A DNA stretch of 64,000 nucleotides from Mustelus asterias. Taxonomy: Eukaryota. The stretch is from assembly GCF_964213995.1 (NCBI RefSeq), contig NC_135808.1, forward strand, positions 23,374,001-23,438,000, given 5' to 3'. The position numbers were made by a program, and so were the translations under genes. Below are positions 5,714 to 59,488 of the stretch, one piece after another. The notes beneath the pieces were generated by a model that was given only the letters and a program-made list of their open reading frames with translations, was not told the DNA's origin and made no database searches. Position 1 is the first letter of the stretch. The number at the start of each line of letters is the position of its first letter.

Positions 5714-8700
5714 TCAGGTACTTGTGGAGGGTCTGGGTGAGGAATCCCCATCATCAGAAGCTGTTAAAGGAAGAAGAGGTGTTAAAACATTGTTCAACAT
5801 CAGAGAGACAGAGGCAGAGACTGTGGATATGATAAAGAGAGAATGAGAGAGACAAAGACAGACAGACACAGAGGAAGAGGTTCTCACACACCCATACTAA
5901 CGGTGACACACAGAAGCCCACACACCCACACACAAACGCACGATGCACGCACACGCGCACACACACACACACGCTATATTTGAAACAGAATGAACAATAA
6001 TGTACACAGTGGCACAGGGACAATGTTTGATGATCAGCTTACTATTTGCAGGATTGTAGTCACTCTTCCCTCTCCCTGTAAAACATGGAATGCTCAGTGA
6101 GTGACGAGACTGAGAGAAAATCAGAGACAGAGGCTGGAACTCTCGCTCGTACTGAGCCCCTACAACACAATTCTGAACCCTCACTCCCACCACAACCCGA
6201 GACCCTCACTCCCACCCTGACCCTGGACCCTCACTCCCACCCTGACCCTAGACCCTCACTCTTAGCTGAGCCCTCACTGATACCCTGAACTCCTCATCCA
6301 ATTTGAGACCCTTCCCACAATTCTGACACTCCCCCTTTATCATGAGCTCCTAACTGTCCCTGTCCCCACCCTGCAGCTCTTCCACCCACCCACCACCCCC
6401 CCCTCCCCACCCCCACACCAACCTGCGACCCACAGCCTGAGCCACCGACACCCTGGAATACTCTCCCAGAATCCCTGCCCCCAGTGAACTGTCATCCGGT
6501 GGATCTGACATCCATCATTATGAAATGATTCGAAAGGCTAGTCATGGCACGAATCAATTCCAGCCTCCCGGACTGCCTGGATCCACTACAGTTCACCCAC
6601 CGCTCTTTTCCCTCCAATTCCTACCTTTCTTGTTGTAGATGACGACAGCCACAATGATGAGAGTGATGAGCACGAGGACCCCGACCACAATCCCGACAGT
6701 AACAGCAACCTGGGAGCGAGACTTTGGTTCTGTTAGAGAGAGAGAATCAGAGAGACTGAGTGAATCAGGGAGAGGGAAAAGTGAGAATCAGAGAGAGAGA
6801 ATGTGAGAGACTGAGTGAATCAGGGAGAGGGATAAGTGTACATCAGAGGGAGACAGAGTGGGAGAGAATAGGAGACAGTGGGAGAGATAGGAAGAGAAGA
6901 GTGGAAGAGAATACGAGAGCGATGGAGAGAGAATGAATCGGAGAGAAAGAAAAAAATCAGAGAGCGAGAGAGAGAATTAGGAAACACAGGATATACGACA
7001 CAGAAAACAACCTTTCAGCCCATCCAGCTGATGCTGGTGTTAATGTTCCACCTGAACCTCTTCCCGTCTTTCCACATCTAATTCCACCATCTTAACTACC
7101 TATTCCCTTCTCCCTCAGTGACTTGTCTATCTTCCCCTTAAACTATACTGTTCAGTTCAGCCACTCCCTGTGGCAGCGAGCCCCACATTCTCATCACTCT
7201 TTGGGTGAAGAGGTTTCATGAATTCCCCACTGGGTTTCTTGGTGAGTATCTTGTATTGATGACCTCTTGTTACGATCTTCCCACAAGAGGAGACATTATC
7301 TCTGTATCCTGTCTATGAAAACCTTTCAGAATTTTAAATCCTCGATTAGGTCAACCCTCAGCCTTCTGTTTTCCCGTGAGCAGAGACCCAGCCGGTCAAT
7401 CCTTTCCTGAGATGTCCACCCACTCATTTCTGGAATCATCTCTGTAAATCTTCTCGACACTCTCTCCCCTGACTCTATATCCTTTGTATGAAATGGTGAC
7501 TGGAACTGCACACAATCTCTAAATGTGGTCTAACCAATTTTGATAAAGGTTTAGCAATAACTTACAATTGTACAAATTGTAATTACTAATGTACAATTCT
7601 ATCGCTCGAGAAATGAAACCTGGTTTTCTGTTTGTTTTGTTTATAGCCTTGTCTAACCTGTTACTGATTGGTGTATTTATCCACCCAGATCCCTTTGTTC
7701 CTCAATCCCATCCAGACTGACACCTTCCTCGTAATAAGTGACCTCCTTATCCATCCTTAACAGAAAACTACCTCACGTTTATCTGTGCTGAACTCCAGAC
7801 ACCAATTATTTGCCCATTCTACAATTTTATTAATGTCCTACGAATTACCTGCAGTTCTCCTCAATATCAAATAATTCCCCCAATTTGGTGCCATCTGCAA
7901 ATTAAGAAATGGTATTTTTGATTCCAATATCCAAGTTATGGAGTGTAAGTTGTGAACAGCGATGATCCCAGCACTGATCCTTGTGGGACACCATTTCCCA
8001 CCTTCCGTCACTCTGAATAACTCCCTTTACTCACACTCTCTGCTTTCTGTCTCAAAGTCAGTGAGTGATCCATTCTGTTACTTATCCCTAACTCCACATT
8101 CTCTGACCTTATCCATTCGTCTATCACCAGTCACCTTATCGATTTCATTTGAAAAATCATATTAAATTACATCCATTACATTACCATTGACTCCTCCCTC
8201 TGTTACATCCTCACAAAATTCACAAAGTGGAGTAAAATAAGATTTTCCATTTCAAAATCCATGCTGATGATTCATTGTTATGTTATTTGATTTCTAGATT
8301 TTCATGAATTCTCTCCAATAGAAGGAGTTCCATTATTTTTCTGAAACTCTGATTTAATCTGACTGAAGTAAACTTCCAGGATGCACTGGGCTTTGTTGTA
8401 CTGTAATATCCCAGGATGCACCGGGCACTGTTGTACTGTAATAATGATGTGGAGCTGCCAGTGTTGGACTGGGGTAAGCACAGTAAGAAGTCTCACAACA
8501 CCAGGTTAAAGTCCAACAGGTAGCAGAAGCCACAAGCTTTCGGAGCACTGCCCCTTCATCAGGTGAGTGGGAGTTTTGTTCACAAACAGGGCATATAAAG
8601 ACACAAACTCAATTTACAAAATAATGGTTGGAATGCAAGTCTTTACAGCTAATCAAGTCTTAAAGGTACAGACAATGTGAGTGGAGAGAGGGTTAAGCAC

Positions 8701-11700
8701 AGGTTAAAGAGATGTGTATTGTCTCCAGCCAGGACAGTTAGTGAGATTTTGCAAGCCCAGGCAAGTCGTGGGGGTCACAGATAGTGTGACATGAACCCAA
8801 AGTCCTGGTTGAGGCTGTCCTCATATGTGAGGAACTTGGCTATCAGTTTTTGCTCAGCGATTCTGCGTTGTCATGTGTTGTGAAGGCCGCCTTGGAGAAC
8901 GCTTACTCGAAGATCGGAGGCTGAATGCCCGTGACTGCTGAAGTGTTCCCCAACAGGAAGAGAATACTCCTGCCTGGTGATTCTCGAGTGGTGTTCATTC
9001 ATCTGTTATCGTACCGTCTGCATGGTCTCCCCAATGTACCATGTCTCGAGACATCCTTTCCTGCAATGTATCAGGTAGACAACGTTGGCCGAGTTGCAAG
9101 TGTATGTACCGCGTACCTGGTGGATGATGTTCTCACGTGAGATGATGGCATCCGTGTCGATGATCCGGCACATCTTGCAGAGATTGCTGTGGCAGGGTTG
9201 TGTGGTGTCGTGGTCACTGTTCTCCTGAAGGCTGGGTAGTTTGCTGCGGACAATGGTCTGTTTGAGGTTGTGCAGTTGTTTGAAGGCAACTGAGCAGACC
9301 CTGTGTATATGGAGGGCCTGTCTGTAGGGGATGGCTTCTTTAACGTGTTTAGGGTGGAAGCTGGGGAAGTGGAGCATCGTGAGGTTATCCGTGGGCTTGC
9401 GGTACAGTGAAGTGCTGAGGTGACCGTCCTTGATGGAGATGCGTGTGTCCAAGAGTGCAAGCAATTCTGGAGAGAAGTCCATGGTGAGTCTGATGGTGGG
9501 ATAGAACTTGTTGATGACATCATATCGTTGTTTCAGTGACTGTTCGCCATGAGTCCAAAGGAAGAAAATGTCATCGATGTATTTAGTGTATAGCGTTGGT
9601 TGAAGGTCCTGAGCATTCCACGATGCTCCACTTCTCCAGCTTCCACCCTAAACACGTTAAAGCAGCCATCCCCTCTGGACAAGCCCTCCGTATTCACAGG
9701 ATCTGCTCAGATGAGGAGGATCGCAACAGACACCTCCAGACGCTGAAAGATGCCCTCATAAGGATAGGATATGGTGCTCGACTAATTGATCGACAGTTCC
9801 GATGCGCCACAGCGAAAAACCGCACCGACCTCCTCAGAAGACAAACACGGGACACGGCGGACAAAGTATCCTTCGTCGTCCAGTACTTCCCCGGAGTGGA
9901 GAAGCTACGACATCTTCTCCGGAGCCTTCAACATGTCATCGATGAAGACGAACATCTTGCCAAGGCCATCCCCACACCCCCACTTCTTGCCTTCAAACAA
10001 CCACACAACCTCAAACAGACCATTGTCCGCATCAAACTACCCAGCCTTCAGGAGAACAGTGACCACGACACCACACAACCCTGCCACAGCACCTCTGCAA
10101 GATGCGGATGCCATCATCTCACGTGAGAACACCATCCACCAGGTACACGGTACATACACTTTCAACTCGGCCAATGTTGTCTACCTGATACGTTGCAGGA
10201 AAGGATGTCCCGAGGCATGGTACATTGGGGAAACCATGCAGACACTGCGACAACAGATGAATGAACACCGCTCGACAATCACCAGGCAAGAGTGTTCTCT
10301 TCCTGTTGGGGAACACTTCAGCAGTCACGGGCATTCTGCCTCTGATATTCGGGTAAGCGTTCTCCAAGGCGGCCTTCACGACACACGACAACGCAGAATT
10401 GCTGAGCACAGACTGATAGCCAAGTTCCGCACACATGAGGACGGCCTCAACCGGGACCTTGGGTTCATGTCACACTATCTGTGAGCCCCACGACTTGCCT
10501 GGGCTTGCAAAATCTCATTAACTGTCCTGGCTGGAGACAATACACATCCCTTTAACCTGTGCTTAACACTCTCTCCACTCAAATTGTCTGTACCTTTAAG
10601 ATTTGATTACCTGTAAAGACTCGCATTTCAACCATTATTTTGTAAATTGAGTTTCTGTCTTTATATGCCCTGTTTGTGAACAGAACTCCCACTCACCTGG
10701 CGAAGGAGCAGTGCTCTGAAAGCAAGTGGCTTCTGCTACCAAATAAACCTGTTGGACTTTAACCTGGTGTTGTGAGACTTCTTACTGTGTTTACCCCAGT
10801 CCAACACCGGCATCTCCACATCATGACTACCGTAATATCCCATGATACACTGTATTATACTGTGATATCCCAGGTTACTCTGGGCCTTGTCATTCTGTAG
10901 TTTCCCAGGACTCAATGGGGCATGTTTCATATCAAATCCTCGACGTACAATTAATTTGCACTAATGGCCATTGTATATTATGCATGGAAAATTAATATTT
11001 ATTTCCCTCTCTCTGTATCTGGGCTGACAGCTCAGCACTGACCCTCCCCTCCTGTGATCCTGGTCTGAGGCTGGGTCCTCTCTAACAGTGAGAAACAGTC
11101 TTACCGTAAATCACCACCAGTGTCTCCTTCACCCCGCTGTGTTCCACCCGACAGGAATACTCGGCCTGGTCCTCTGGATCAAACTCGACCCATTTCCGGA
11201 TCTGGTAGGTGCTGTCGGGATTGGGTAAGATCCCACTGGACAGAGTCTCATCAATCACCACTCCGTCTCTCCACAGATTCACCTCGATGGGTTGAGGGTA
11301 AAACCCGGTGACGGCACAGGACAGCCGGGTAGAATCACCCAGACGGGTAAAGGACACGACGGGGGCAACTGAGAGAGAAAGAAAGAGGAGTCAGTACAGG
11401 AACCTCGAGATAGAGAGTCCCGGCATCACCCCCTTCACCGACTCTCACCCCCCCCTCACTCACCGATTCTCACACCCCCCCTCACTCACCGACTCTCACT
11501 CCCCCCTCACTCACCGACTCTCACTCCCCCCTCACTCACCGACTCTCACTCCCCCCTCACTCACCGACTCTCACTCCCCCCTCACTCACCGACTCTCACT
11601 CCCCCTCACTCACCGACTCTCACTCCCCCCTCACTCACCGACTCTCCCTCCCCCTCACTCACCGACTCTCACTCCCCCCTCACTCACCGACTCTCACTCC

Positions 11701-14700
11701 CCCCTCACTCAGCGACTCTCACTCCCCCCTCACTCACCGACTCTCCCTCCCCCTCACTCACCGACTCTCCCTCCCCCTCACTCACCGACTCTCACTCCCT
11801 CCTCACTCACCGACTCTCAGTAGTTTTTGTCCATATTTCAGATATTTCCTCAGCCATTCGATACACTCCCCCTCCAGGTAATGTTTAAATCGCCTTTTGA
11901 CGATGACATCCTGATCCCAGATGTTTTTGATGCTCTCCCCCCAGGGGACCGGAGTCACCCACACCATGTGATCCTTGTCGAAGCTGATAAAATCTTGTCC
12001 ATTCCACGCGTACTGGTTGAATCCACTTGTGGTCCCATCATCGCTCAGTTCACAGCCAGTCATCATCTGGAAGACATGGATCCCTGTGGATCAGAAAAAA
12101 CAAACAGCCAATCAGTGCCAGTCCCAATGGGAGATCCCACCTCCACAGCCAATCATAGCCAGTCCCACTGATTGGCCCCACCCTCTGTAGAAACAGCGAA
12201 TCAAATCCAGCTACACTGAGAGGCGCTTCCCACTCGATAGTAGACTGCCAATCAGAGCCAGTTACACAGAGCGGGCCCATGTCCGACATGCACATCCAAT
12301 CAGAGCCAGTCTCACTTGGACATAATCCCTCCACACACACACACACACACAGCCAATCGCATTTACTGTCACATCTCCAATCGCAGCCAATCAGCCTCTG
12401 GCTCCCAGCTCCTGATCCACTCTGGGTTTCTCTTCATTACAAGCTGGACGCCGAGAGCCAGGTCTGACAAAGTGTCATCCAGACCTGAAAGGTTAGCTCT
12501 GTTCTCTCTCCACAGATGCTGTCAGACCTGCTGAGGTTTTCCAGCATTTTCTGTTTTGGATTCAGATTCCAGCATCCGCAGTATTCTGCTTTTATATATG
12601 GGGCAGAGTGAGGACTCACCTCCTGTCTGGTTGGTCCGGGACATGAGGGTCGGAATACTAGTTTTGAAATGCATCTCCCCCTCCCGTACGAGCATCATCT
12701 TCTGCTCCCAAAACTCAGACCCATCGCCCTCCACCATCCACCGCTCCGGGTGAATCACCTCCTTCCGATCACTGTCATATGTCACAAACTGGATATCGTC
12801 CACATAACCGACAACCACAAACTCCGGGAAACCCGGGATCGGAGTCATTCCCGTGAGGAAATACCGGAGAGAGTGAGAGCCTGAAATATAGAGAAAGAGA
12901 GAGACATCAGGGTGTGAACCCCAAAACACCAACACCCAGAGAGAGAGAGACATCAGGGTGTGAACCCCAACATACCAACACCCAGAGAGTGAGAGACATC
13001 AGGGTGTGAACCCAAAACACCAACACCCAGAGGGAGAGACATCAGGGTGTGAACCCCAAAACCCAACACCCAGAGAGAGAGAGAGAGACATCAGGGTGTG
13101 AACCCCAAAACACCAACACCCAGAGAGAGAGAGAGAGACATCAGGGTGTGAACCCCAAAACACCAACACCCAGAGAGAAAGAGAGAGACATCAGGGTGTG
13201 AACACCAGAACCAGAGCGTTGTGCCCCATTGACCTGGTAAAATCCACCTCACTGATATTTGTGTCAAAATTGGAGAACTCTTCAACAATCTGGTGAAGCA
13301 ACAGTCTGACAGAGTTATACTCACTGTGACACACGATGTGAAAGGTCGCAACCACCCTCCCCATCCCTGGTTATGGCCTATCTCACTGGCAGGGTGAACC
13401 CGGGGATGACCTGTCTCAGTGGCAGGCTGTTTCCAGGGATGACCTGTCTCACTGGCAGCGTGTATCCGGGGATGACCTGTCTCACTGGCAGCGTGTATCC
13501 GGGAATGATCTGTCTCACTGGCAGGGTGTATCCGGGGATGACCTGTCTCACTGGCAGGGTGGATCTGGGTGTGACCTGTCTCACTGACATGGTGTTTCCG
13601 GGGATGACCTGTCAAAGTGGCAGGGTGGATCTGGGTGTGAGCTGTCTCACTGGCAGGGTGTATCCGGGAATGACCTGTCAAAGTGGCAGGGTGGATCTGG
13701 GTGTGAGCTGTCTCACTGGCAGGGTGTATCCGGGGATGACCTGTCTCACTGGCAGGGTGGATCTGGGTGTGAGCTGTCTCACTGGCAGTGTGTATCCGGG
13801 GATGACCTGTCTCACTGGCAGGGTGGATCTGGGTATGACCTGTCTCACTGGCAGGGTGGACCCACCACATGCTTTGGCACAGTAATCTTCACTGGGAATG
13901 GCGTTCCCCTTAGAAACGTTTCTGGACCCGATGAGGTCTCAGGTATTCAGTCAAACTTCGGCAGCAAAACCTCTATTTGATTGTTACCGAAAATCCTCCC
14001 CCAGCTGAGGAATCAGTATCTCTCCATGTTCAACACTCCTTGGAAAAAACACTAAGGGAGATGAGGACTCAGACTCTACTCTGGGTGGGGCTTGAATGTC
14101 CTTCCCTCAGAGTGACTCAGTAATATAACTGCAGACTGAGCAGTCCGAGTCCGGAATGATACATCTGTGACTTAGCCTGTGGCCTTTCCTGTGAAAATAA
14201 GGAGTGTGATGCCTCTGTAGTTGTCGCAGGCTCCTCGATTAGTCTTCTCTGCAGCATATTTTCTGTAAACAGTGTGATGGAACTCAGTCTATTTTCCAGC
14301 AGAGGGAGCTGCTCATAAAGGTGTGGGAATTGATGGCTCTTTTCCTGCTGGGATTCCATTCTTGCCAAGAGCCTTTCCGTTCACTAAGCAGCCTAACCAG
14401 CCTTCTCAAGCTCAAGTGGTGAAATCAAGTGAACACTATTCCTTGAGCTGTCAACAAAAGTGAGGTTAGCACTGCTGCCTCACAGCGCCAGGGACCCAGT
14501 TTCAATTCTGGCCTTGGGTGACTGTCCCTGTGGAGTTTGCACATTCTCTCCGTGGGTGTGGTTAAGATATTCTGTCAGAGGGTTGGTGGAGACTCAATGG
14601 GTTCCTTCTGCACTGTCGGGATTCTCTGATTCTTCCTCTAACTCATTCACCACAGGAAACTGTGGGAGAATATCTAGGGGGTGGACTGGGAGATGGACTG

Positions 14701-15082
14701 GGAGCAACTTTGGTGAGGGCAGAGACATGAACCTTCTTGATCCTTCCTGCACAGCTCACAGGTTGCTATTGTCACAGGAAGTTTAGATTTCTTGATGCAC
14801 GTGGTGTATTCCTCCAAACCCTCCCTCTCTCGGTCTCTCTCTTAACTCTCCAGCCTCATGTCCCTGCCCTTATTTCCCTCACAATCTACAATTTTGCTCC
14901 TTCTACAGACCCAGTACCCAGTCAGATATTGTTCCTCTCACACCCCATCACTCACTGACCCAGGGTTAATGCTCCAGTACCCAGCCTGGCATTGCCCCTC
15001 TCACACCACATCGCTCACCTGCAGACACCTCTCCACACAGAAGGACCAACTCTATCAGTCCAATCATTGTTGCTTCCCTCAT
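5714..15082 (-). CDS. MHC class I heavy chain, probably non-classical (gene A); exons complement(15019..15082 leader, 12620..12880 alpha1, 11811..12083 alpha2, 11105..11368 alpha3, 6625..6729 TM, 6043..6075 cyt1, 5714..5760 cyt2)
   Basis: Leader MREATMIGLIELVLLCGEVSA; alpha1 GSHSLRYFLTGMTPIPGFPEF...SRTNQTG with the N86 glycosylation site; alpha2 with the C101/C164 pair (TGCELS...ECIEWL); Ig-C1 alpha3 (LSCAVTGFYPQ...YSCRVEH); hydrophobic TM; tail with YNPA. All introns are GT-AG phase 1; 1047 nt with no internal stop. Confidence 0.93.
6492..6602 (+). mobile_element. 111-bp internal RT fragment of a Rex1/Babar-like LINE in intron 5 of gene A (also 41466..41576 and 58580..58690 on the minus strand)
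   Basis: Translates to PV(A/D)LTSIIMK*FERLVMARINSSLPDCLDPLQF; absent at the equivalent site in gene B. Confidence 0.65.
6980..8330 (-). mobile_element. Ancient degraded CR1-like LINE in intron 4 (shared by all four genes: ~23220-24520, ~39770-41050, ~56940-58220 on the plus strand)
   Basis: Remnant motifs SQHGF, VPQGSVLG, FADDTKLG, RRLRVDLIE. Confidence 0.7.
8446..10823. mobile_element. Penelope-like retroelement insertion: two inverted copies (8446..~9595 minus, ~9617..10823 plus) in intron 4 of gene A
   Basis: GIY-YIG endonuclease NVVYLIRCRKGCPEAWYIGET...RMNEH, RT thumb LYRKPTD...HPKHVK, outward-facing 3' ends (TGATGTGG... / ...CCACATCA). Confidence 0.88.
8531..8565 (-). ncRNA. Minimal type I hammerhead ribozyme in a Penelope-like 3' repeat
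   Basis: Minus strand CAC CTGATGA A GGGGC AGT GCTCC GAAA GC TT GTG: core CUGANGA/GAAA, stem II, short stem I, palindromic AGCT stem III. Confidence 0.6.
11435..11819. repeat. ~25-bp G-rich (sense strand) minisatellite in intron 3 of gene A
   Basis: (GTGAGAGTCGGTGAGTGAGGGGGGA)n on the minus strand, about 15 units. Confidence 0.92.
12895..13205. repeat. ~45-bp minisatellite at the 3' end of gene A intron 1
   Basis: (GA)n-GACATCAGGGTGTGAACCCCAAAACACCAACACCCA repeated about 7 times. Confidence 0.88.
13373..13862. repeat. 33-bp minisatellite in gene A intron 1
   Basis: TGACCTGTCTCACTGGCAGGGTGTATCCGGGGA, about 15 copies; produces the 11-aa periodic ORFs. Confidence 0.9.
14463..14613 (+). mobile_element. 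tRNA-derived SINE (HE1/V-SINE-like), internally deleted
   Basis: GGTTAGCACTGCTGCCTCACAGCGCCAGGGACCC...TGGAGTTTGCACATTCTC. Confidence 0.7.
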
Positions 15083-15189: not shown

Positions 15190-15256
15190 CCAATCAGAAT
15201 AAAGAGATTCAGTGAGTCATCAGTCTCCGGCAGAAAACAATTTCTCAAACAAGCTG
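15190..15256 (-). promoter_or_regulatory. MHC SXY promoter module of gene A
   Basis: Minus strand CCGGAGACTGATGACTCA (X1/X2) followed 15 nt later by CTGATTGG (Y box), about 110 nt upstream of the ATG; conserved in all four genes. Confidence 0.7.
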
Positions 15257-32625: not shown

Positions 32626-32637
32626 AACTGTGACCGG

Positions 32638-47600: not shown

Positions 47601-50600
47601 CATTTTGTTCAAAACAGGTTTTAAATGTAGTCAAGTATTTTATTCAGCCTCGCGCCGCAATGTGTGAGAAATCGGGTGCGAATCTCATCTGTATTGAACT
47701 CATGAATTCCAATATCTTCTGCCCTTTCCTGATTTTTTCTCTTCATGTCTGTTATTCATTGGTGAGTGTGTTTGTGTCACATCTCCCATTCCCAAGCACT
47801 CTGTCTGGGGAAATAACAAACATTATTGAAATATCAGAGCTTTTGTATCAAACTGTCATCTGCAACTCCAAATGTCAGATCGCGGTAAATTTCGAATTCT
47901 TGTCACTGTTGGAAATATTGTTACACTTTGCAGTATTGGACACAATTGTTACCTGTATGTGTGTGTGTGTGTTATTAAAACAACAGAAAAGGTTTATTCT
48001 GCTCGGAGCTGAATGGGTTAATTCTAAATTAAAACACGTTTGGTGAAGGAATTCACTGTCACCGCGATTTCAGAAAGTGACTGGGTTACAATGTTCTCAG
48101 AGTAATGGCGGTTTCAGCAGAACAAAGATATTTCTTCATCTCTTGTGGATTCACCAATTCAAACTGGATACTTCCGAATAAAAACCTTGGAGCAAAATGG
48201 ATTAGAAGATAAAGTCCCAATTGTTCCCCAGGGTTGTTTTTAAATGGAGATTTTAAAAACAAGAATAATCCATGAACAATCACCTTCAATTCATTCCTGA
48301 ATTTGAAATTACACCATTAAAGCTTAAAAAAAATGACCCCACTCTGACAGATGTGAATTTGTATCTGGATTAGAGATCCCACATGTTTCACCCATTTCAA
48401 CAGAGTTTCATTGTAACGGCAACAAGCTCCCAGTTTAAAAACTTTTAAACTGTTCTCCCCCTTTAGACCTCACCATTTTGAGGAAAACACAGAGTTGGAG
48501 CTGGTCTGAAGGAACAGCAACACAGAGCATTCACACAGCCTTTTCTCATTCACTAACAGGAAGTTTACACACACACATCTGTCCACACAATTCTTTCTCA
48601 CATCACTTCAAGTTTCACATTTGGAGGAAAATGTAACTGGATTGATTAGTCAGTTTGCGGACGACACAAAGGTTGGTGGATTTGCGGACAGCGATGAGGA
48701 CCATCAGAGGATGCAGCAAGATGTAGATCAGTTGGAGACTTGGGTGGAGAGATGGCAGGTGAAGTTTAATCCAGACAAATGTGAAGCAATGCATTTTGGA
48801 AGGTCTAATACAGATAGGAAATATACAGTAAATGGCAGAACCCTTCAGAGTATTGATAGCAAAGGGATCTGGGTGTACAGGTACACAGGTCACTGAAAGT
48901 GGCAATGCAGGTGGAGAAGGTAGTCAAGGCGGCATATGGCATGCTTACCTTAATTGGCTCTTGGAATATCGTGTTCCATTCTGGTCGCCACACTACCAGA
49001 AGGATGTGGAGACTTTGGAGAGAGTACAGAAAATATTTACCAGGATGTTGCCTGGTATGGAGGGCATTAGCTATGGGGAGAGGTTGGAGAAATTTGGTTT
49101 GTTCTCACTGGAGCGACGGAGGTTGAGGGGAGGCCTGATAGAAGTCGACAAGATTATGAGGGGCACGGACAGAGTGGATAGTCAGAAGTTTTTTCCCAGG
49201 GTGGAAGAGTCAATTACTAGGGGGCACAGGTTTAAGGTGCGAGGGGCAAGGTTTAAAGGAGATGTACAAGGCAGATTTTTTTTAAAAACAAAGAGTAGTG
49301 GGTGCCTGGAATTCGTGGCCGGGGGGAGGGAGTGGAAGCGGGTATGGCAGTGACTTTTAAGGGGCATCTTGACAAGTACATGAATAGGATGGGAATAGAG
49401 GGATATGTTTCCCGGAAGAGTAGGGGGTTTTAGTTAAGTTAGGCAGCATGGTTGGTGCAGGCTTGGAGGGCCGAAGGGCCTGTTCCTGTGCTGTAATTTT
49501 CTTGGCATATATTCCTATTCTCATGAAAGAGCATCTTATCCAAACTGAAAGTTGGCCAAGGCCGGAATTGAACCCGCGTCCCTGGTACTGTGAGGCAGCA
49601 GCGCTAACCACTGTGCCAGCGTGTCACCCACTTGGACACAGGTTGCTTCACATCCTTTAGATCTGTGCACAGAACGGAGACATATTCATAAAGTAAAAGG
49701 AACAGTTGTTTGTTTACAAATCAGGATATCTCTGAACATAAACAACCCGGTTGTTCACACAGTATTTTAAACTTTACTGTGAGTTTCTTTAATTGCTTTT
49801 TTCTAACCTGCTTCTGATATTCCACCAACCAGACATCAACAGCCCATTTCTGAAAAGCAGCGAGATCCATTTCTTCATCCTGATTCAATAATCTAATCTT
49901 TGGCCTCACATCTCCGTGATCTCTCACTATTTGTTTCTTCCCGTCGATTTTCTCCCAAACATTCCAATTTCCCTACTCTGATCCAAGCATCCAATCACCA
50001 AATACTGTTTCTTTGTGCACCATTTGACCTTTCAATTTAACTCTGCTCGATCAACTGTCCACTTTCTCAAATCACTTCCTTCCTGAACAAACACTAACTT
50101 CTCAAACAAGGCTCGGCAAGCTGAGACCTATTTTTATCGTGATTGCTTCAATGGTACAAGGTTTAATATAAGTACAGGACACAGCTCACACACTGAGAGG
50201 GACAGTATCAGTACAGGACACAGCTCACACACTGAGAGGGACAGTATCAGAACAGGACACAGCTCACACACTGAGAGGGACAGTATCAGTAATGGACACA
50301 GCTCACACACTGAGAGGGACAGTATCAGTAAAGCACAGCGCTCACACACTGAGAGGGATGCTATCAGTGCAGAACTGTGACCGGGATGCAGAATGATCTG
50401 GACAGGTTGAGTGAGTGGGCAAATTGATGGCCGATGCAGTATAATTTGCATAAATGTGAGGTTATTCACTTTGGAAGCAAAAAAAAGGCAGATTACTATC
50501 TGAATGGTGTAAATTGGGAGAAGGGAGTGTGCAGTAGGACTTGGGTGTCCTTGTGCATCAGTCACTGAAGGTAGGCACGCAGGTGCAGCAGGCGGTAAAG

Positions 50601-50740
50601 AAGGCAAATGGCATGTTCGCCTTCACTGCGAGAGGTTTTGAGTGCAGGGGCAAGGATGTGTTGTTGCAATTAAACAGGGCCTTGGTGAGGCCACACCTAG
50701 GGTATTGTGTGCAGTTTTGGTCTTTGTTTACTTGCAACAA

Positions 50741-51976
50741 TGATGTGGAGATGCCGACGTTGGACAGGGGTAAACACAGTCAGAATTTTAACAACACCAG
50801 GTGAAGGTCCAACAGGTTTATTTGATGGCAAATGCCATTAGCTTTTAGGTGTCTGTTGCGATCCTCCTCCAGACGCTGAAAGATGCCCTCATAAGAACAG
50901 GATATGGCGCTCGACTCATTGATCAACATTTCCGACGCGCCACAGCAAAAAACCGCACCGACCTCCTCAGAAGACAAACACGCGACACGGTGGACAGAAT
51001 ACCCTTCGTCGTCCAGTACTTTCCCGGAGCGGAGAAGCTACGGCATCTCCTCCGGAGCATTCAACATGTCATTGATGAAGATGAACATCTCGCCAAGGCC
51101 ATCCCCACACCCCCACTTCTTGCCTTCAAACAACCGCACAACCTCAAACAGATCATTGTCCGCAGCAAACTACCCAGCCTTCAGGAGAACAGTGACCATG
51201 ACACCACACAACCCTGCCACAGCAACCTCTGCAAGACGTGCCGGATCATCGACACGGATGCCATCATCTCACGTGAGAACACCATCCACCAGGTACACGG
51301 TACATACTCTTGCAACTTGGCCAACGTTGTCTACCTGATACGCTGCAGGAAAGGATGTCCTGAGGCATGGTACATTGGAGAAACCATGCAGGCGCTACGA
51401 CAACGGATGAATGAACACCGCTTGACAATCACCAGGCAAGACTGTTGTCTTCCTGTTGGGGAGCACTTCAGCGGTCACGGGCATTCAGCCTCTGATGTTC
51501 GGGTAAGCATTCTCCAAGGCGGCCTTCACGACACACGACAGCGCAGAGTCGCTGAGCAGAAACTGAGAGCCAAGTTCCGCACACATGAGGACGGCCTAAA
51601 CCGGGATGTTGGGTTTATGTCACACTATCAGTAACCCCCACAGCTTGCCTCCTGGACTTGCAGAATCTCACTGGTTGTCCTGTCTGGAGACAATACACAT
51701 CTCTTTAACCTGTGCTTAATGCTCCCTCCACTCACATTGTCTGTATCTTTAAGACCTGGTTGGCTGTAGAGATTCGCATTCTAATCAGTATTCTGTAACT
51801 TGATTTTGTGTCTCTGTATGCCCTGTTTGAGAGCAGATTTCCACTCCATCTGACGAAGGAGCAGCGCTCCGAAAGCTAATGGCATTTGCTACCAAATAAA
51901 CATGTTGGACTTTAACCTGGTGTCGTTAAAACTCTTATTGTGTTTACCCCAGTCCAACGCCGGCATCTCCACATTA
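50741..51976 (+). mobile_element. Penelope-like element with an uninterrupted C-terminal ORF (RT thumb, linker, GIY-YIG)
   Basis: 261-aa ORF 50849..51634 with the CHSNLCKTC linker and the GIY-YIG motif. Confidence 0.9.
51846..51882 (+). ncRNA. Minimal type I hammerhead ribozyme in a Penelope 3' repeat
   Basis: CCAT CTGACGA A GGAGC AGC GCTCC GAAA GC TA ATGG: perfect stems I and II, palindromic AGCT stem III. Confidence 0.68.
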
Positions 51977-54101
51977 TTGTTGCAAGTAAACAGGGCCTTG
52001 GTGAGGCCACACCTCGAATATTGTGTGCAGTTTTGGTCTCCTTTTCTGAGGAAGGATGTTCTTGCTCTCGAGGGAGTGCAGCAAAAGTTTACCAGGCTGA
52101 TTCCGGGGATGGCGGGACTGATGTATGAGAAGAGATTGACTAGGTTAGGATTGTTTTCGCTGGAGTTCAGACGAATGAGGGGGGATCTCATAGAGACGTA
52201 TAAAATTCTAACAGGACTAGAAAGGGTAAGTGCAGGGAGGATATTCCCAATGGAGTTCGCTGGAGTTCAGACGAATGAGGGGGGATCTCATAGAGACTTA
52301 TAAAATTCTAACAGGACTAGAAAGGGTAAGTGCAGGGAGGATATTCCCAATGGTGGGGGAGTCCCAAACCAGGGATCACAGCCTGAGGATTCAGGGTGCA
52401 TCATTTAGGATGGAGGTGAGGAGACATTTCTTCACCCAAAGTGTGGTGAGCCTGTGGAATTCATTACCACAGGAAGTAGCTGATGCCAAAACATTGAATG
52501 TATTCAAGAGGCAACTGGATAAAGCACTTGGGGCGAATGGGATCAAAGGTTATGGAGAAAAAGCAGGATTCGGCTATTGAATTGGATGATCAGCATGATT
52601 GTAATGAATGGCGGAGCAGACTCGAAAGGTCAAATGGCCTCCTCCTGCTCCTATCTTCTATGTTTCTGTGTTTCTATGGACCAATTCTTCCTGTTTCAGT
52701 CTTGCAGGTCCAAAATGCAGAGAGGTTACACTCAGATGAGGATTCTCTGGCAGCAGGTTGTGAACCAGACACAACTTGAGGCAAGGCAGAGAGAGAATCA
52801 GGTTGCGTTGCCTTCATTTTCCAACTTTTTGCCCAGAGAGACTCGTGGAATGGCTACAGTGCAGAAGAGGCCATTCAGCCCATTGAACCTGCACCAACAA
52901 CAATCCCATCCAGGCCCTATTCCTGTCACCCAACATATATACCCTGTTAAACCCCCTGACATTAAGGGGCAATTTAGCATCGCTAATCCACCTAACCAGC
53001 ACATCTTTGGACTGTGGGAGGAAACCAGAGAACCCAGAGGAAACCCATGCAGACACAATCAGTCACCCAAAGGTGGAATTGAGTCTGGGTCCCTGGCACG
53101 GTGAGGGAGCAGTGCTGACCGCTGTGCCATCATGGCACCCCAATTCAATTCAAACCAGCAGTTTCAAAACTTAAAGTTTCTCCCTGCCGTGTGATTTCCA
53201 GAACACCACGAGACTTTGCTTTTCAGTTTTATTACCCAGCAATTAAAGTGAATCCAGTTCAAAACTAGCAAACAACTCTTCCTCAAGTACCATACAGGTC
53301 AGGTGAAGGCAGGCTGGCTCTCAGTCCAAGGAGTATTTATGGCCCTCTTTTGAGAAAAAAACTCCAAGTCAGTATCAACTATCCGGACAGTGCAATATGT
53401 TTCCATGTTTTATGAAAGATATGCGTTTCCCAACACATTGAATTGTCCCAGTGTCATTCAGAAGTCCCTTATCTCCAATAATATTCCAGCAAATCTCCTC
53501 TGCACCCTCTCTAATACGTTGATATTCCTCCTAAAACAGTATGACCAGAGGTGGGGTCAATTCTCCAGCTGGGATCTAATCAATATTTTATCAATGTTCA
53601 GCGTGACCTCCTTGCTTTTGTACTCTGTGCCTCTATTTATAAAGCAATGGGGTCCAGATGCTTCTTTCACAGTCTCATCACACCTTCCTGCCAGCCTCAT
53701 ACTCACTCAGGTCTCTCTGTTCCTGCAATCCCTTTATAACTGTACCATTCAGTTTACATTCCCTCTGTCCATTCTTCTGTTCAAACTGCATCACTTCAAA
53801 TACCTCACTGGATTGTATTTCACCTGCCCTGTGTCTGCCCATTTCACCAACCTGTCTAATGGAACATTGATTGTGTCTGGATGGGAGACAAAGTGATGGA
53901 AGTGAAGCTTCAGTTTCACAGAGTCTTTGTTCAGAGCCTGTCTGGAGTAACTGTGTTCAGTTCTGGACACCGCACCTCAGGAAGGGGAGATTGGTCTTGG
54001 AGAGGGTTCTGATCACCAGAATAATAAAAGGAGGTTAAATGAAAGGGGTTTTTTTCCCACAGAGTTTATCTGATTGGACAGTTCTCATTGAGGCAGTTTC
54101 T

Positions 54102-54164
54102 CAACCTGTTTGTGTCTATTCTGCCGGAGACTGATGACTCACTGAATCTCTTTATTCTGATTGG
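54102..54164 (+). promoter_or_regulatory. MHC SXY promoter module of gene D
   Basis: CAACCT, CCGGAGACTGATGACTCA and CTGATTGG with the same spacing as gene C. Confidence 0.72.
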
Positions 54165-54286
54165 TTTAAATCCTATTTTGTGTCCAATCAGATTGAGGCT
54201 CAGTGTCAACAGGGAAAGACAGAAGGAGTGAGTTGAGAAGATCACCTTTCTTTGAAAAAGAGTTTCCTCCAAATGTTTCCCCCAAC

Positions 54287-54566
54287 ATGAGGGAAGCAGC
54301 AATGATTGGACTGATAGAGCTGGTCCTTCTGTGTGGAGAGGTGTCTGCAGGTGAGTGATGGGGTGTGAGAGGGGCAATGCCAGGCTGGGTAATGGGGCAT
54401 TAACCCTGGGTCAGTGAGTGATGGGATGTGAGAGGGGCAATGCCAGGCTGGGTACTGGGGCGTTAACCCTGGGTCAGTGAGTGATGGGGTGTGAGAGAGG
54501 CAATGCCAGGCTGGGTGGAGGTCTTGCTCTCGGTTTGGAATCAGTGTTTGGGGTTCATGCCCTGAT

Positions 54567-54600
<34 letters not shown>

Positions 54601-57600
54601 GTGTTGGTGTTTTTAGGGTGTCTATCCTGAATTCTCTCTCTCTCTATTTCAGGCTCTCACTCTCTCCGGTATTTCTTCACGGGAATGACTCCGATCCCGG
54701 GTTTCCCGGAGTTTGTGGTTGTCGGTTCTGTGGACGGTGTCCAGTTTGTTGTGTACGACAGCGATCGGAGGGAGCTGATCCCCCGGGAGCAGTGGATGGT
54801 GGAGAGCGAGGGTCGGGCAGCCTGGGAGCGGAAGAAGATCTTCGCACAGGAGCGGGCGATGCGTTTCAAACGTGCATTTCCACTGCTCATGTCCGACACC
54901 AACCAGACAGGAGGTGAGTGCTCACTCTCCCAGCACCAGGGGATCCAGGTGGGAATGAGGAGAAACCCAGAGTGGATCAGGAACCGAGAGCCAGAGGCTG
55001 ATTGGCTGCGATTGGAGATGTGACAGGAAATGTGATTGGCTGTGAATGTGTGGAAGGATTGTTTCCAGGGAGACTGGCTCTGATTGGCTGTGTGTGAGTG
55101 GAGGAGGTGGGGGGTGCGGGGGCGAGGGGCGGGAGCAGTTGACGGTGATTGGCTGTTAGGATGAGATTGCCCAGTGAGACTGGTTCTGATTGGCTGTTTG
55201 TGTTTCTGATCCACAGGGATCCATGTCTGCCAGATAGTGACTGGCTGTGACCTGAGCGATGATGGGACCATGAGTGGATTCAGCCAGTACGGGTGGGATG
55301 GACATGATGTTCTCAGCTTCGACAAGGATCACATGGTGTGGGTGACCCCGGTCACATGGGGGAAGAGCATCAAAAACTGGTGCAACCGGCAGACTGGCAA
55401 CATTCAGCAATGGAAACATTACCTGGAGGTGGAGTGTATCGAGTGGCTGAGAAAATACCTGGAGTATGGACAGAGAGAATTGAGAGTCTGTGAGTGAGGG
55501 GGGAGTGAGAGTCGGTGAGTGAGGGGGGAGTGAGAGTCGGTGAGTGAGGGGGGGAGTGAGAGTCGGTGAGTGAGGGGGGAGTGAGTCGGTGAGTGAGGGG
55601 GGAGTGAGTGAGAGGGGAGTGAGAGTCGGTGAGTGAGGGGGGAGTGAGAGTCGGTGAGTGAGGGGGGGAGCGAGTGTGGGGAGAGCGAGTGTGGGGGGGG
55701 GTGAGTGTGAGCGAGGGTGGGGGGAGCGAGTGTGGGTGAGGGTGGGGGGAGCGAGTGTGGGCGAGTGTGGGGGGAGCGGGTGTGGGCGAGGGTGGCGGGC
55801 GGGTGTGGGCAAGGGTGGGGGAAGCGGGTGGGGGCGAGGGTGGGGGGGCGAGGGTGGGGGGAGCGAGAGTCGGTGAGTGAGGGGGGATTGAGAGTCGGTG
55901 AGTGAGGGGGGAGTGAGAGTCGGTGAGTGAGGGGGGAGTGAGAGTCGGTGAGTGAGGGGGGAGTGAGAGTTGGTGAAGGGGGTGATGCCGGGACTCTTAT
56001 CTCGAGGTTCCTGTACTGACTCCTCTTTCTTTCTCTCTCAGTTGGCCCCGTCGTGTCCTTTACCCGTCTGGGTGATTCTAACCGGCTGTCCTGTGCCGTC
56101 ACCGGGTTTTACCCTCAGGCCATCGAGGTGAATGTGTGGAGAGACGGAGTGGTGATTGATGAGACTCTGTCCAGTGGGATCTTACCCAATCACGACAGCA
56201 CCTACCAGATCCGGAAATGGGTAGAGTTTGATCCAGAGGACCAGGCCGAATATTCCTGTCGGGTGGAACACAGCGGGATGAAGGAGACACTGGTGGTGAT
56301 TTACGGTAAGACTGTTTCTCACTGTTAGAGAGGACCCAGCCTCAGACCAGGATCACAGGAGTGAGGGTCAGTGCTGAGCTGTCAACCCAGGATATCGAGA
56401 GAGGGAAATAAATATTATTCAATGCGTTATATATCATGGTTCCACAGTGCAACATGATACAGCGGATCATTGGATATTGGGATCGCACTGGGCCTGGTGT
56501 AACATTGGACACGAGTGTCGGTCTGGGCCTGGGGTATTCTGGGATATTGCAGTATAGTGGGGCCCAGTGAATCCTGGGATATTGCAGTAGTTCAGAACAT
56601 GGTGTATCCTGAGATACTCTCGTAGGACACATCCCAGTGAATCCTGGGATGTTGCAGTAGTACAGACCGTGGTGTATCCTGAGATATTCTCGTAGGACAC
56701 ATCCCAGTGTATCCTGGGATATTGCAGCCTGTCAGGGCCTGGTGAATCCTGGGATATTACAGGAGGTTGGGCACCGTGGAATATCAGAGGATGGAGAGAG
56801 CCTGGTGTTTCCAAGAAACAATGCTTTTCACTGTGTCCCAATACATGTGACAATAATAAATCATATCAAATATTACAGTAGGACAGGACCCAGTGCATCC
56901 TGGAAGTTTACTTCAGTCAGATTAAGATCAGTATTCAGAGAAATAATGGAATTCCTTCTATTGGAGACAATTCATGAAAATCTAGAATCAAATACTATAA
57001 CAATGAATATTCAGCATGGATTTTGAAATGGAAAATCTTGTTTTACTCCACTTAGTGAATTTTTTGAGGATGTAACAGAGGGAATAGACAATGGAAATGT
57101 AATAGATATAATATCATATAATTTTTTTAATGTAATAGAAAAGGGGGTTCGTGATGGACTGATTGACAAGGTGAAAGCATGTGGAGTTAGGGGATGAGTG
57201 ACAGAATGGATCACTCACTGACTTTGGGAGAGAAAGCAGAGAGTGTGAGTAAAGGGTGTTTCAGAGTTACAGAAAGTGTTCCACAAGGATCAGTGCTGGG
57301 ATCACCGCTGTTCACAAGTTACACTCCATAACTTGGATATTGGAATCAAAAATACCATTTCTTAATTTGCAGATAACACCAAATTGGGGGAATTATTTGA
57401 TATTGAGGAGAAGTGTATTAAATTAATAGGACATGAATAAACTTGAACAAATAGTTGGTGAATAAAGTTCAGCACAGATAAACGTGAAGTATTTTTCAGT
57501 TAATGATGAATAGGGAGGGTTGAGGAACAAAGGGATCTTGATGTACAAATACACCAATCAGTAAACATAGAGTTACAGGTTAGACAATAAACAAAATACA

Positions 57601-59488
57601 ATCGAAAACCAGGGTTGATTTCTCGAGGGATAGAATTGTAAAGTAGGGATTTTATTGCTAAACCTGCATCAAACCTTGGTTAGACCACATTTAAAGACCG
57701 AGTGCAGTTCCGGTCACCATTTCATACAAAGGATATAGAGTCAGGGGAGAGAGTGTCGAGAAGATTTACAGAGATTATTCCAGAAATGAGTGGGTGGACA
57801 TCTCAGGAAAGGATTCACCGGCTGGGTCTCTGCTCTCGGGAAAACAGAAGGCTGAGGGTTGATTTAATCGAGGATTTAAAATTAGGGAAGTTTTTTTTAT
57901 AGAGCGGACACATCGAGAGTGTTCCTCTTGTGGGAAGAGCATATCCAGTGGCCATCAATACAAGAAACCCAATGGGGAATTCATGAGAAACCTCTTCACC
58001 CAAAGAGTGATGAGAATGTGGAGCTCGCTGCTACAGGGAGTGGCTGAACTGAACAGTATAGTTTAAGGGGAGGATAGACAAGCAAATGAGGGAGAGGGGA
58101 ATAGAGTTAAAATGGTCGAATTAGATGAGGAATAATGGGAGGAGCCTCAGGTGGAACATTAACACCAGCATCAATAGATGGGCTGAAAGGCCATTTTCTA
58201 TGTTGTATATCCTGTGTTTCCTGATTCACTCTCTCTCTGATTCACTCCCACATTTCTCTTTCTTTCTCTCTGATTCACTCTCTCATTCTGTCTCTCTGAT
58301 CTTTCTCTGTCTCTCATTCTCTCTCTTCCTCACTCTTAGTTGCTCATCCTCTCTCTCATTCTCTCCCACTCGCTCACATTCTATTTCACTCTGATTCTCA
58401 CTTTTCCCTCTCCCTGATTCACTCAGTCTCTCTGATTCTCTCTCTCTAACAGAACCAAAGTCTCGCTCCCAGGTTGCTGTTACTGTCGGGATTGTGGTCG
58501 GGGTCCTCGTGCTCATCGCTCTCATCATTGTGGCTGTCGTCATCTACAACAAGAAAGGTAGGAATTGGAGGGAAAAGAGCGGTGGGTGAACTGTAGTGGA
58601 TCCAGGCAGTCCGGGAGGCTGGAATTGATTCGTGCCATGACTAGCCTTTCGAATCATTTCATAATGATGGATGTCAGAGCCACCGGATGACAGCTCACTG
58701 GGGGCAGGGATTCTGGGAGAGTATTCCAGGGTGGCGGTGGCTCAGGCTGTGGGTCTCAGGTTGGTGTGGGGGTGGGGAGGGGGTGGGTGGGCGGGTGGAA
58801 GAGTTGCAGGGTTGGGATAGGGACAGTAAGGGGCTCATGATAAAGGGGGAGTGTCTGAGAATTGTGGGAAGGGCCACAAATTGGATGAGGACTTCAGCGT
58901 ATCAGTGAGGGCTCAGGTAACAGTGAGGGTCTAGGGACAGGAACCGGAGTGTGGGTCCAGGGTCAGCGTGTGAGTGAGGGTCCAGGGTCAGGGTGGGAGT
59001 GAGGGTCTCTGGTTGTGGTGGGAGTGAGGGTTCAGAGTTGTGTTGTAGGGGCTCAGTGCGAGTGAGAGTTCCAGCCTCTGTCTCTGATTTTCTCTCAGTC
59101 TCGTCTCTCACTGAGCATTCCATGTTTTACAGGGAGAGGGAAGAGCAACTACAATCCTGCAAATAGTAAGCTGATCATCAAACATTGTCCCTGTGCAACT
59201 GTGTACATGATTGTTCATTCTGTTTCAAATATAGTGTGTGCGTGTGCGTGTGCGTGCATCGTGCGTTTCTGTGTGGGTGTGTGGGCTTCTGTGTGTCGCC
59301 GTTAGTATGGGTGTGTGAGAACCTCTTTCTCTGTGTCTGTCTGTCTATGTCTCTCTCATTCTCTCATTATCATATCCACAGTCTCTGCCTCTGTCTCTCT
59401 GATGTTGAACAATGTTTTAACACCTCTTCTTCCTTTAACAGCTTCTGATGATGGGGATTCCTCATCCAGATCCTCCACAAGTACCTGA
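54287..59488 (+). CDS. MHC class I heavy chain, probably non-classical (gene D); exons 54287..54350, 54653..54913, 55217..55489, 56042..56305, 58453..58557, 59133..59165, 59442..59488
   Basis: Same 7-exon structure and sizes, open frame; two extra cysteines in alpha2 (IHVCQ, KNWCN). Confidence 0.93.
54351..54516. repeat. 63-bp tandem repeat in intron 1 of gene D (2 full units plus a partial)
   Basis: Same unit as in genes B and C. Confidence 0.88.
55490..55976. repeat. ~25-bp G-rich minisatellite in intron 3 of gene D with a degenerate, very G-rich core
   Basis: Regular units at both ends, irregular G-runs at about 55660-55865. Confidence 0.9.

Follow-up and report, generated by a model that had tools for sequence, protein, structure and literature searches.

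A Constant Stalk beneath Divergent Grooves in Four UBA Class Ib Genes of the Shark Mustelus asterias

Introduction

A 64,000-nucleotide stretch of the Mustelus asterias genome (contig NC_135808.1, positions 23,374,001 to 23,438,000; hereafter the window) carries four MHC class I genes, A to D, with a nearly constant stalk and a groove that differs strongly from copy to copy. How did neighboring genes become so alike in one part and so unlike in another? A sequence-only reading attributed the contrast to diversifying selection acting on an invariant scaffold. The analysis reported here argues for another answer: in these UBA class Ib genes the stalk is probably kept uniform by gene conversion across the whole array, and the grooves remain separate and under selection.

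The family is known, and so is the mechanism in mammals; what is new is the quantification for UBA. No comparable analysis of UBA was found in the open literature, although the main UBA papers lie beyond that search and may state part of it. In the accessible parts of PMC10751288 and PMC12562908, silent sites, selection or twin pairs of UBA are not analyzed domain by domain, and those of PMC6795676 and PMC6523485 contain nothing on shark UBA.

Gene Structure and Promoters

All four genes are complete (Table 1) and intact, as the sequence-only reading had it. Each consists of seven exons whose lengths are the same in all copies (64/261/273/264/105/33/47 nt), with GT-AG splice sites and a 1047-nt coding sequence for 348 amino acids with no internal stop. 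The exon order leader-alpha1-alpha2-alpha3-TM-tail, in phase 1, is that of an MHC class I heavy chain, and the alpha2 and alpha3 disulfide pairs and the N86-equivalent sequon are present in every copy. The two extra cysteines in alpha2 of D could possibly form an additional disulfide. A single-sequence AlphaFold model of the database protein P0017 turned out to be unusable (mean pLDDT 37.6). Searching the window with tblastn (E ≤ 1) gave no further class I exon copies, and a scan of 14 of its longer open reading frames outside the MHC genes revealed no other gene apart from reverse-transcriptase fragments.

A promoter module that we take to resemble the X2-Y box occurs in 4/4 genes, as compared to 0.01 expected. 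Matches to an interferon-response-like motif 5' of C and D (4) are no more numerous than chance allows, since 11 of 100 shuffles gave as many.

Table 1. Coordinates of the class I genes, their exons and associated features in the window (position 1 is its first letter; TM, transmembrane segment).
Feature	Position	Strand	Remark
Gene A	15082-5714	-	complete
A exon 1, leader	15019..15082	-	
A exon 2, alpha1	12620..12880	-	groove same as M. asterias P0018
A exon 3, alpha2	11811..12083	-	
A exon 4, alpha3	11105..11368	-	homogenised
A exon 5, connecting peptide + TM	6625..6729	-	homogenised
A exon 6, cytoplasmic 1	6043..6075	-	
A exon 7, cytoplasmic 2 + stop	5714..5760	-	
Gene B	18399-25814	+	complete
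B exon 1, leader	18399..18462	+	
B exon 2, alpha1	20365..20625	+	groove vs. P0019: 1/178 differs
B exon 3, alpha2	20767..21039	+	
B exon 4, alpha3	21123..21386	+	
B exon 5, TM	25003..25107	+	
B exon 6, cytoplasmic 1	25540..25572	+	
B exon 7, cytoplasmic 2 + stop	25768..25814	+	
Gene C	36431-42378	+	complete
C exon 1, leader	36431..36494	+	
C exon 2, alpha1	36920..37180	+	nearest groove in database at 88%, hence no close twin
C exon 3, alpha2	37505..37777	+	
C exon 4, alpha3	38872..39135	+	
C exon 5, TM	41339..41443	+	
C exon 6, cytoplasmic 1	42029..42061	+	
C exon 7, cytoplasmic 2 + stop	42332..42378	+	
Gene D	54287-59488	+	complete
D exon 1, leader	54287..54350	+	
D exon 2, alpha1	54653..54913	+	groove same as P0017
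D exon 3, alpha2	55217..55489	+	2 additional Cys, also in P0013
D exon 4, alpha3	56042..56305	+	
D exon 5, TM	58453..58557	+	
D exon 6, cytoplasmic 1	59133..59165	+	
D exon 7, cytoplasmic 2 + stop	59442..59488	+	
A promoter, X2-Y-box-like module	15190..15219	-	
B promoter, X2-Y-box-like module	18255..18284	+	kept amid otherwise diverged promoter
C promoter, X2-Y-box-like module	36278..36307	+	
D promoter, X2-Y-box-like module	54135..54164	+	
25-bp G-rich minisatellite, intron 3 of A	11435..11819	-	15.5 units; tandem copies of exon 3 donor junction
25-bp G-rich minisatellite, intron 3 of C	37769..38806	+	41.5 units
25-bp G-rich minisatellite, intron 3 of D	55481..55982	+	partly degenerate
Tandem duplication unit with C	28391..46235	+	17.8 kb
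Tandem duplication unit with D	46236..64000	+	reaches window end

Assignment to the UBA Lineage

By their sequences, A-D are assigned to UBA, a class Ib lineage already known to be multicopy in elasmobranchs. The final groove and alpha3 trees comprised 44 chosen rows (39 UBA-clade shark, 5 UAA), with ray, sawshark, sevengill and the twins P0017-P0019 kept outside; the larger trees lost 2 (alpha3) and 7 (groove) of 99 rows that were too short or frameshifted. A-D group with P0053 in the 39-row clade against the five UAA rows, at 100/100 for the groove (alpha1 + alpha2) and 99/98 for alpha3, which gives a place to genes whose lineage had previously been left unassigned. The displayed domains of P0053 match the entry to which the PMC10751288 supplement gives the label Gcirratum_UBA_AAC60347. 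In alpha3, A-D share 65-72/86 residues with reference UBA and 46-51/87-88 with UAA; their closest relatives are Mustelus asterias proteins.

A-D have neither all eight peptide-end anchors of classical UAA nor a UAA-type alpha3, and joining them to houndshark UAA in alpha3 is rejected (AU p = 3e-5). The lineage-specific alpha1 and alpha3 sequences of UCA, UDA and UGA, compared by eye in the supplement alignments with rows outside the trees, were not matched. UEA was the initial guess and was given up after the trees and the supplement's UBA label; given the placement inside UBA, in trees that hold no UEA reference, membership appears unlikely. The label "UEA" has 0 hits in the PMC10751288 supplement.

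All of the window's class I genes (4/4) are UBA. The UBA and UAA proteins of M. asterias list the same length of longest contig, 140,552,254, which fits one chromosome. In their accessible parts, PMC10751288 (section 9) and PMC12562908 describe UBA as a multicopy cluster, and the former places it within the MHC, flanked by c4 and rxrb.

The earlier view of the genes as non-classical is borne out by the peptide-end anchors, scored on what we presume to be the appropriate list: 5/8 are kept in A, 4/8 in B, 6/8 in C and 3/8 in D. All four have lost Y59 and carry K at 63, and positions 143, 146 and 147 are variable.

Divergence of Groove and Stalk

C and D differ at 37/178 groove residues (15/87 in alpha1, 22/91 in alpha2), as compared to 4/88 in alpha3 and 0/35, 0/26 and 0/21 in TM, tail and leader; the counts made previously from the letters alone were reproduced exactly. 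The concentration in the alpha1 helix noticed then is equally real (12/15 of the alpha1 differences). Across A-D, 38/57 antigen-recognition-site codons vary vs. 36/121 other codons (P = 4e-6), with a site list and HLA numbering that we assume to apply to these genes.

Two other generalizations need correction. The tail is not near-identical in all paralogs, that of B differing from the others at 6-7/26 residues. The surrounding DNA is near-identical between C and D only (91/2142 or 4.2% differences in intron 4; 799/15581 or 5.1% over whole repeat units), whereas pairs with A or B have diverged by 17-24% in intron 2 and by 12-14% in the intron-4 core. Silent divergence (dS) is 0.14-0.36 in the groove exons vs. 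0.015-0.047 in the stalk.

Probable Gene Conversion of the Stalk

In pairs with A or B, silent sites differ by 0-3% in alpha3 + TM, against 12-14% in the intron between these exons and 9-27% at four-fold sites of the groove. In the five such pairs, 0-2 of 60-62 four-fold sites in alpha3 + TM differ (P 0.0004-0.011 vs. intron 4), and the mismatch rate jumps near the borders of the alpha3 and TM exons, within ~60-120 nt. Within alpha3, 13/45 column pairs fail the four-gamete test (14 rows). The constant stalk of these pairs is mostly a product of gene conversion, beyond constraint alone. Since its silent sites are homogenised far below intron 4 and alpha3 variants are shuffled among paralogs, the scaffold is not invariant, as had been proposed, but constant within the species by conversion. 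The stalk of C vs. D is at background divergence (P = 0.26-0.44), so stalk conversion is unnecessary for that pair. GC-biased conversion is not indicated (GC3 0.68-0.69 in alpha3, 0.65-0.70 in the groove).

A, B and D each have a twin in the database; these twins stand for 90% clusters, and recent paralogs may be among them instead of alleles. The three pairs show 1/534 differences in the groove vs. 9/264 in alpha3 (P = 3e-4): A/P0018 and D/P0017 each have 0/178 and 4/88, and B/P0019 has 1/178 and 1/88. In the zebra shark, a single groove clade is rejected (AU p = 5e-70), the grooves pairing with those of whale, nurse and epaulette sharks at 100/99-100; the alpha3 rows cluster by species, weakly (78/61), and a placement of zebra-shark P0036 alpha3 with nurse-shark UBA is not rejected (p = 0.13). 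Monophyly of the Mustelus grooves is likewise not rejected (AU p = 0.22), so a deep age of grooves is shown for carpet sharks and not for A-D.

Shuffling of cassettes, a process described in the classical U genes of teleosts, is an unlikely alternative. In this scheme unequal crossovers within introns 1 and 3, perhaps at the minisatellites that contain the splice donor, would place old groove cassettes on gene bodies of recent duplication. When A is compared with C or D, divergence does fall abruptly at intron 3, the site of the G-rich 25-bp repeat, and at their 3' ends these three genes have diverged by a mere 2-6%. However, a single crossover cannot produce the diverged intron 4 between two homogenised exons, and informative sites switch topology inside alpha2 (7/4/6 vs. 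120/5/8 in intron 4). In addition, alpha3 of B is homogenised without an intron-3 repeat, which also rules out the minisatellite as the general cause of alpha3 homogenisation.

The earlier explanation, in which recent duplicates keep the stalk by purifying selection and diversify the groove by point mutation and positive selection with no need of conversion, now looks quite improbable. It can draw on the alpha1 exon of C vs. D, where 18 replacement changes accompany 3 silent ones against a background of 4%, and on the significant site models described below. Nevertheless, constraint on the protein cannot equalise silent sites, and A and C differ at 0/94.7 silent sites in alpha3 + TM vs. 31.3/116.5 in the groove, with intron 4 at 12%. 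Even C and D have 11.8/56 silent differences in the alpha2 exon (P = 3e-6 vs. background). The twins are more different in alpha3 than in the groove, and alpha3 is 12-20% different between Mustelus and other sharks as compared to 7% within Mustelus. For pairs with A or B this explanation is largely refuted.

Selection on the Groove

Positive selection is supported for a minority of groove codons, as judged from site models. Groove-wide dN/dS is below 1 in 6/6 pairs (0.37-0.90); at recognition sites the pairwise values are 0.69-1.59, none significantly above 1, and at other sites 0.18-0.59, in keeping with retained function. Comparison of M1a and M2a, on four sequences with our own implementation and without multi-nucleotide changes, gives 2dL = 26.75 with omega 4.5 on 18.5% of codons. 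The statistic is halved (2dL = 14.05) once four separate segments have their own branch lengths. Mosaicism alone inflates the test (14/66 nulls exceed the nominal 5% cut-off), but the observed values are reached by 0/66 and 0/28 null simulations, and positive selection is supported for 5-19% of groove codons beyond the simulated mosaic nulls. In C vs. D, alpha1 recognition sites carry 14/68.5 replacements vs. the 4.2% intron rate, with silent changes at 3/62. With strictly four-fold sites, divergence of the groove is above that of intron 4 in just 3/6 pairs at P < 0.05. Diversifying selection thus survives for some codons, whereas selection alone does not explain the contrast with a stalk whose silent sites are homogenised.

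It is very unlikely that the grooves simply drift after loss of anchoring, as birth-and-death leftovers without distinct functions. Pairwise dN/dS near 1 at recognition sites would suit such relaxation, as would the truncated or frameshifted appearance of the M. asterias relatives P0014, P0057 and P0072. Against it stand the models with omega > 1 that beat neutral ones, the near-identical grooves of three twin pairs, the carpet-shark groove lineages kept across genera, and frames, splice sites and promoter modules intact in 4/4 genes. Finally, uncollapsed haplotypes of one classical locus, suggested by the adjoining 17.8-kb direct repeats of C and D, are next to impossible, since the two units differ by 5.1% and by indels, A is inverted, introns of A and B are 12-24% diverged, the genes are not UAA, and ~11 distinct UBA grooves are annotated in M. 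asterias, apparently on one contig; A-D are true paralogs.

Proposed Mechanism and Function

Stalk conversion and separately selected grooves fit together as follows. A-D appear to be old duplicates in which the exchange of short tracts among copies has overwritten the exons for alpha3, TM and leader. The alpha1 and alpha2 exons remain at or above background divergence, are patchworks of segments common to paralogs, and include a minority of codons under positive selection. Conversion probably runs across the whole array. Tracts over alpha3 and TM would be tolerated or favored because all copies presumably share beta2m, CD8 and loading partners, and groove-erasing tracts would be purged. Occasional micro-conversions or point changes may create new grooves that selection keeps.

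The grooves appear to be close to fixed in each copy and different between copies, as the twins suggest, and the earlier idea of a germline groove repertoire is a fair reading. There is about an even chance that the product of each gene is a membrane-bound heavy chain of class Ib whose single groove is near-monomorphic; this groove would most likely bind its own peptide set, with non-standard end anchoring, and present it to T or NK-type receptors. A bolder and rather doubtful proposal is that UBA is a germline repertoire of at least 12 fixed ligand-specific grooves, some kept across shark genera, with new ones arising by micro-conversion on a species-matched alpha3. Its N-terminal pocket (Y59 lost, K63) would be rebuilt to take ligands of a non-standard class, by which innate-like T cells are selected, and the intron-3 donor array would tune membrane-bound vs. 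truncated alpha1-alpha2 output per gene.

Within UBA, orthologs are definable by groove exons and not by alpha3 trees. Grooves that appear to behave as fixed loci allow specific proteins to be named for ligand elution. Concerted evolution of alpha3 is extended to the oldest MHC-bearing lineage.

Comparison with Known Systems

The elasmobranch UBA references (nurse shark AAC60347/O19479; horn shark O19480) fall in the same clade as A-D for both groove and alpha3. They have likewise partly lost the anchors (4/8 and 5/8), with K at 63, and A-D show species-level differences only.

Classical UAA (nurse shark 6LUP; Triakis O46821/O46836; M. asterias P0083) keeps 7-8/8 anchors, and both its alpha3 (52-59% identity) and its TM are distinct from those of A-D. 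6LUP is the best solved-structure match (alpha1 E 5e-28, alpha2 E 1e-33), and groove hydropathy is similar (-0.51 to 0.25 in A-D, -1.04 to 0.08 in UAA). UAA diversity is allelic, whereas that of A-D lies between loci. UBA is described as UAA-derived in the accessible part of PMC12562908.

In mammalian class I (HLA-E/Qa1), exon 4 is homogenised within species by conversion and the Ib binding regions retain their own ancestry; conversion links class Ia and Ib, and selection on the Ib groove is negative (Joly and Rouillon 2006, PMC1403747). A-D likewise have exon 4 homogenised and grooves separate. Unlike in mammals, the exchange is among Ib paralogs, UAA alpha3 is excluded in Mustelus, and positive selection acts between copies.

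Xenopus XNC is an expanded class Ib family, and UEA and XNC both form large germline sets with divergent grooves. Shark UEA is described, in the accessible text, as an expanded class Ib family (PMC12562908) and as a lineage of its own, older and located in a different cluster (PMC10751288, PMC12562908). Large germline class Ib sets with divergent grooves are common to UEA, XNC and UBA.

Gene Models and Lineage

The sequence-only reading had proposed four intact class I genes, and this was borne out: motif-guided gene building gives A–D seven exons of equal lengths, canonical splice sites and 348-residue products free of internal stops. The window holds a real, well-formed array of UBA, the multicopy class Ib lineage. 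Gene A runs in the inverted direction, head-to-head with B; genes C and D occupy two adjoining 17.8-kb direct repeats, one gene in each. No further class I exon appears in the window at E ≤ 1. When 14 other long window ORFs were compared with Pfam, two matched reverse transcriptase, one gave a sub-threshold mucin-like match on a repeat and 11 had no match. Downstream of A, several kb match the 3′ flanks of C and D at 92–95%, with LINE reverse-transcriptase fragments and a 28-bp satellite among the matching sequence; the 3′ side of A therefore has a recent history in common with the C/D unit.

Features of the class I array (window positions)
Feature	Gene	Strand	Position	GTRAGT donor-like sites
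Gene	A	-	15082-5714	
Gene	B	+	18399-25814	
Gene	C	+	36431-42378	
Gene	D	+	54287-59488	
Intron-3 25-bp minisatellite	A		11435-11819	14
Intron-3 25-bp minisatellite	C		37769-38806	41
Intron-3 25-bp minisatellite	D		55481-55982	14
Intron-1 63-bp repeat	B		18463-18822	
Intron-1 63-bp repeat	C		36495-36786	
Intron-1 63-bp repeat	D		54351-54516	
alpha2 exon	D		55217-55489	
3′ flank	A		1-5700	
3′ flank	C		42379-46000	
3′ flank	D		59489-64000	

The intron-3 minisatellite repeats the exon 3 donor junction in tandem; intron 3 of B has 83 nt and lacks it. The true exon 3 donor of C and D has T at −1, most minisatellite copies G. Splicing at any downstream intron-3 donor is predicted to place a stop right after alpha2. 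The 63-bp repeat opens intron 1 from its very first nucleotide, with one donor-like site per unit.

The best shark alpha3 matches are M. asterias proteins (90–94%), among them counterparts of A (P0018), B (P0019) and D (P0017). No such twin of C was found (best groove match 88%), which suggests another haplotype or individual whose gene content differs. The cluster of P0019 has 11 member sequences against 1–5 in other M. asterias clusters, reflecting either many isoforms or recent amplification of the B-type groove.

The lineage, previously left unassigned, is UBA. In trees of 44 chosen rows, A–D share a clade with O19479 (P0053) of nurse shark and O19480 of horn shark, separate from classical UAA (support 100/100 for grooves, 99/98 for alpha3); wider quick trees place them likewise. 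The supposed non-classical status also stands, since A, B, C and D keep only 5, 4, 6 and 3 of eight peptide-end anchors, whereas among six UAA-type references four keep 8/8 and two 7/8. In the anchor numbering, which we assume throughout, Y59 is missing from all four genes and position 63 is K. In the supplement of PMC10751288 the P0053 sequence carries the name Gcirratum_UBA_AAC60347; section 9 of that paper places a cluster consisting solely of multicopy UBA genes between c4 and rxrb, and a passage of the review PMC12562908 describes UBA as an expanded, UAA-derived family. Tree placement, these sources and anchor loss together mean that family, expansion and non-classical status are already known.

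Homogenization of the Stalk

The earlier C/D residue counts are exact: 37/178 in the groove (alpha1+alpha2), 4/88 in alpha3 and none in leader, TM or tail. The remaining five pairs, all involving A or B, differ at 35–58/178 and 5–9/88. Near-identity of flanking DNA holds for C/D (4–5% differences) and fails for pairs with A or B (intron 2, 17–24%; intron-4 core, 12–14%).

Silent divergence is 0.14–0.36 in groove exons vs. 0.015–0.047 in the stalk. In the five pairs with A or B, 0–2 of 60–62 four-fold sites of alpha3+TM differ, against 12–14% of the intron between these exons (P 0.0004–0.011) and 4/47 to 14/52 groove four-fold sites. Low-divergence islands stop within about 60–120 nt of the alpha3 and TM exon edges. 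Protein-level constraint does not reach silent sites, so their equality implies that the common ancestor of these exons is younger than that of the introns; in these pairs alpha3 and TM have evidently been homogenized by conversion between copies. Three further results agree. The three twin pairs differ at 1/534 groove vs. 9/264 alpha3 residues (P = 3e-4), the alpha3 changes being mostly variants present in other paralogs. The four-gamete test fails for 13/45 alpha3 column pairs (14 rows). Trees conflict: a single groove clade is rejected for zebra shark (AU p = 5e-70), whose grooves pair across genera, and epaulette shark (p = 7e-4), whereas alpha3 clusters by species (Mustelus 98/85; zebra shark weakly, 78/61). 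Weighing against this, the test does not reject a single clade of Mustelus grooves (p = 0.22), and the stalk of the young pair C/D is at background divergence.

Groove and alpha3 placements also conflict for three Heptranchias proteins (P0063, P0088, P0089) and for P0101 of Heterodontus; the grooves of P0063 and P0089 are sisters, yet their alpha3 domains fall in distant clades. This suggests domain swaps between class I lineages.

Selection and Mosaicism in the Groove

Diversifying selection between paralogs, as earlier claimed, is not seen groove-wide (dN/dS 0.37–0.90). At 57 codons which we take to be recognition sites dN/dS is 0.69–1.59, significantly above 1 in no pair, vs. 0.18–0.59 at other groove codons. 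Site models in our own implementation do detect selection (2dL 26.75 for M1a/M2a, 28.5 for M7/M8, 26.8 for M8a/M8), with omega 4.5 for about 19% of codons; most of them fall at helix positions 57–84 and 146–158 or at floor positions 97, 116 and 121. Separate trees for floors and helices lower 2dL to 14.05 (p = 9e-4; 4.6% of codons). Under mosaic null simulations the two-part test is inflated (14/66 above 5.99); none reached the observed values (0/66, maximum 15.8; 0/28, maximum 4.6). The same tests give no signal in alpha3+TM. These models show a minority of groove codons to be under positive selection.

Between C and D, alpha1 has 14/68.5 recognition-site replacements with silent sites at background, a pattern readable as selection or micro-conversion. 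Silent changes in alpha2 (11.8/56) far exceed background, a sign that sequence was imported from an older paralog. Of the residues at the 37 positions that differ, 34 in C and 26 in D also occur in another paralog (12 rows), and informative sites split 7/4/6 among three topologies in alpha2 vs. 120/5/8 in intron 4. The grooves are thus mosaics.

Proposed Mechanism and Function

The array shows duplication together with exon-limited homogenization of alpha3 and TM. Selection may filter conversion: tracts would be kept where every copy must fit common partners and removed where they would erase a groove, and each locus would hold one near-fixed groove.

Pocket-lining residues of A–D have UAA-like hydropathy; we therefore guess, at roughly even odds, that they bind peptides with altered end anchoring rather than lipids. 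Lipid or other non-peptide ligands would be more likely for an M. asterias UBA sublineage beyond the window (P0005 second half, P0021, P0022), with 0–1/8 anchors and a strongly hydrophobic groove (0.86–1.31 vs. −0.51 to 0.25 in A–D). The alpha2 exon of D encodes two additional cysteines, common to P0013, at mature 92 and 143 (HLA-equivalent 95, 147); an extra floor-to-helix disulfide is possible. All four genes carry an X2-Y-like promoter module (four matches vs. 0.01 expected, with presumed box sequences), which would indicate competence rather than expression. The SXY arrangement is described in PMC4374748.

Comparison with Known Systems

Genes A–D are new members of a known lineage, and their process of evolution is also known. 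Gene-segment transfer among shark class I genes was reportedly already proposed by Bartl in 1997. No conversion or selection analysis of UBA was found in the open-access literature searched. The additions here are the UBA lineage call, evidence that copies exchange alpha3 rather than the groove, and particular, putatively fixed grooves for testing. In medaka, the title of a reference cited in PMC6523485 indicates interlocus homogenization. The UBA mechanism would work like the alpha3 homogenization that Joly and Rouillon (PMC1403747) describe for mammalian class I.
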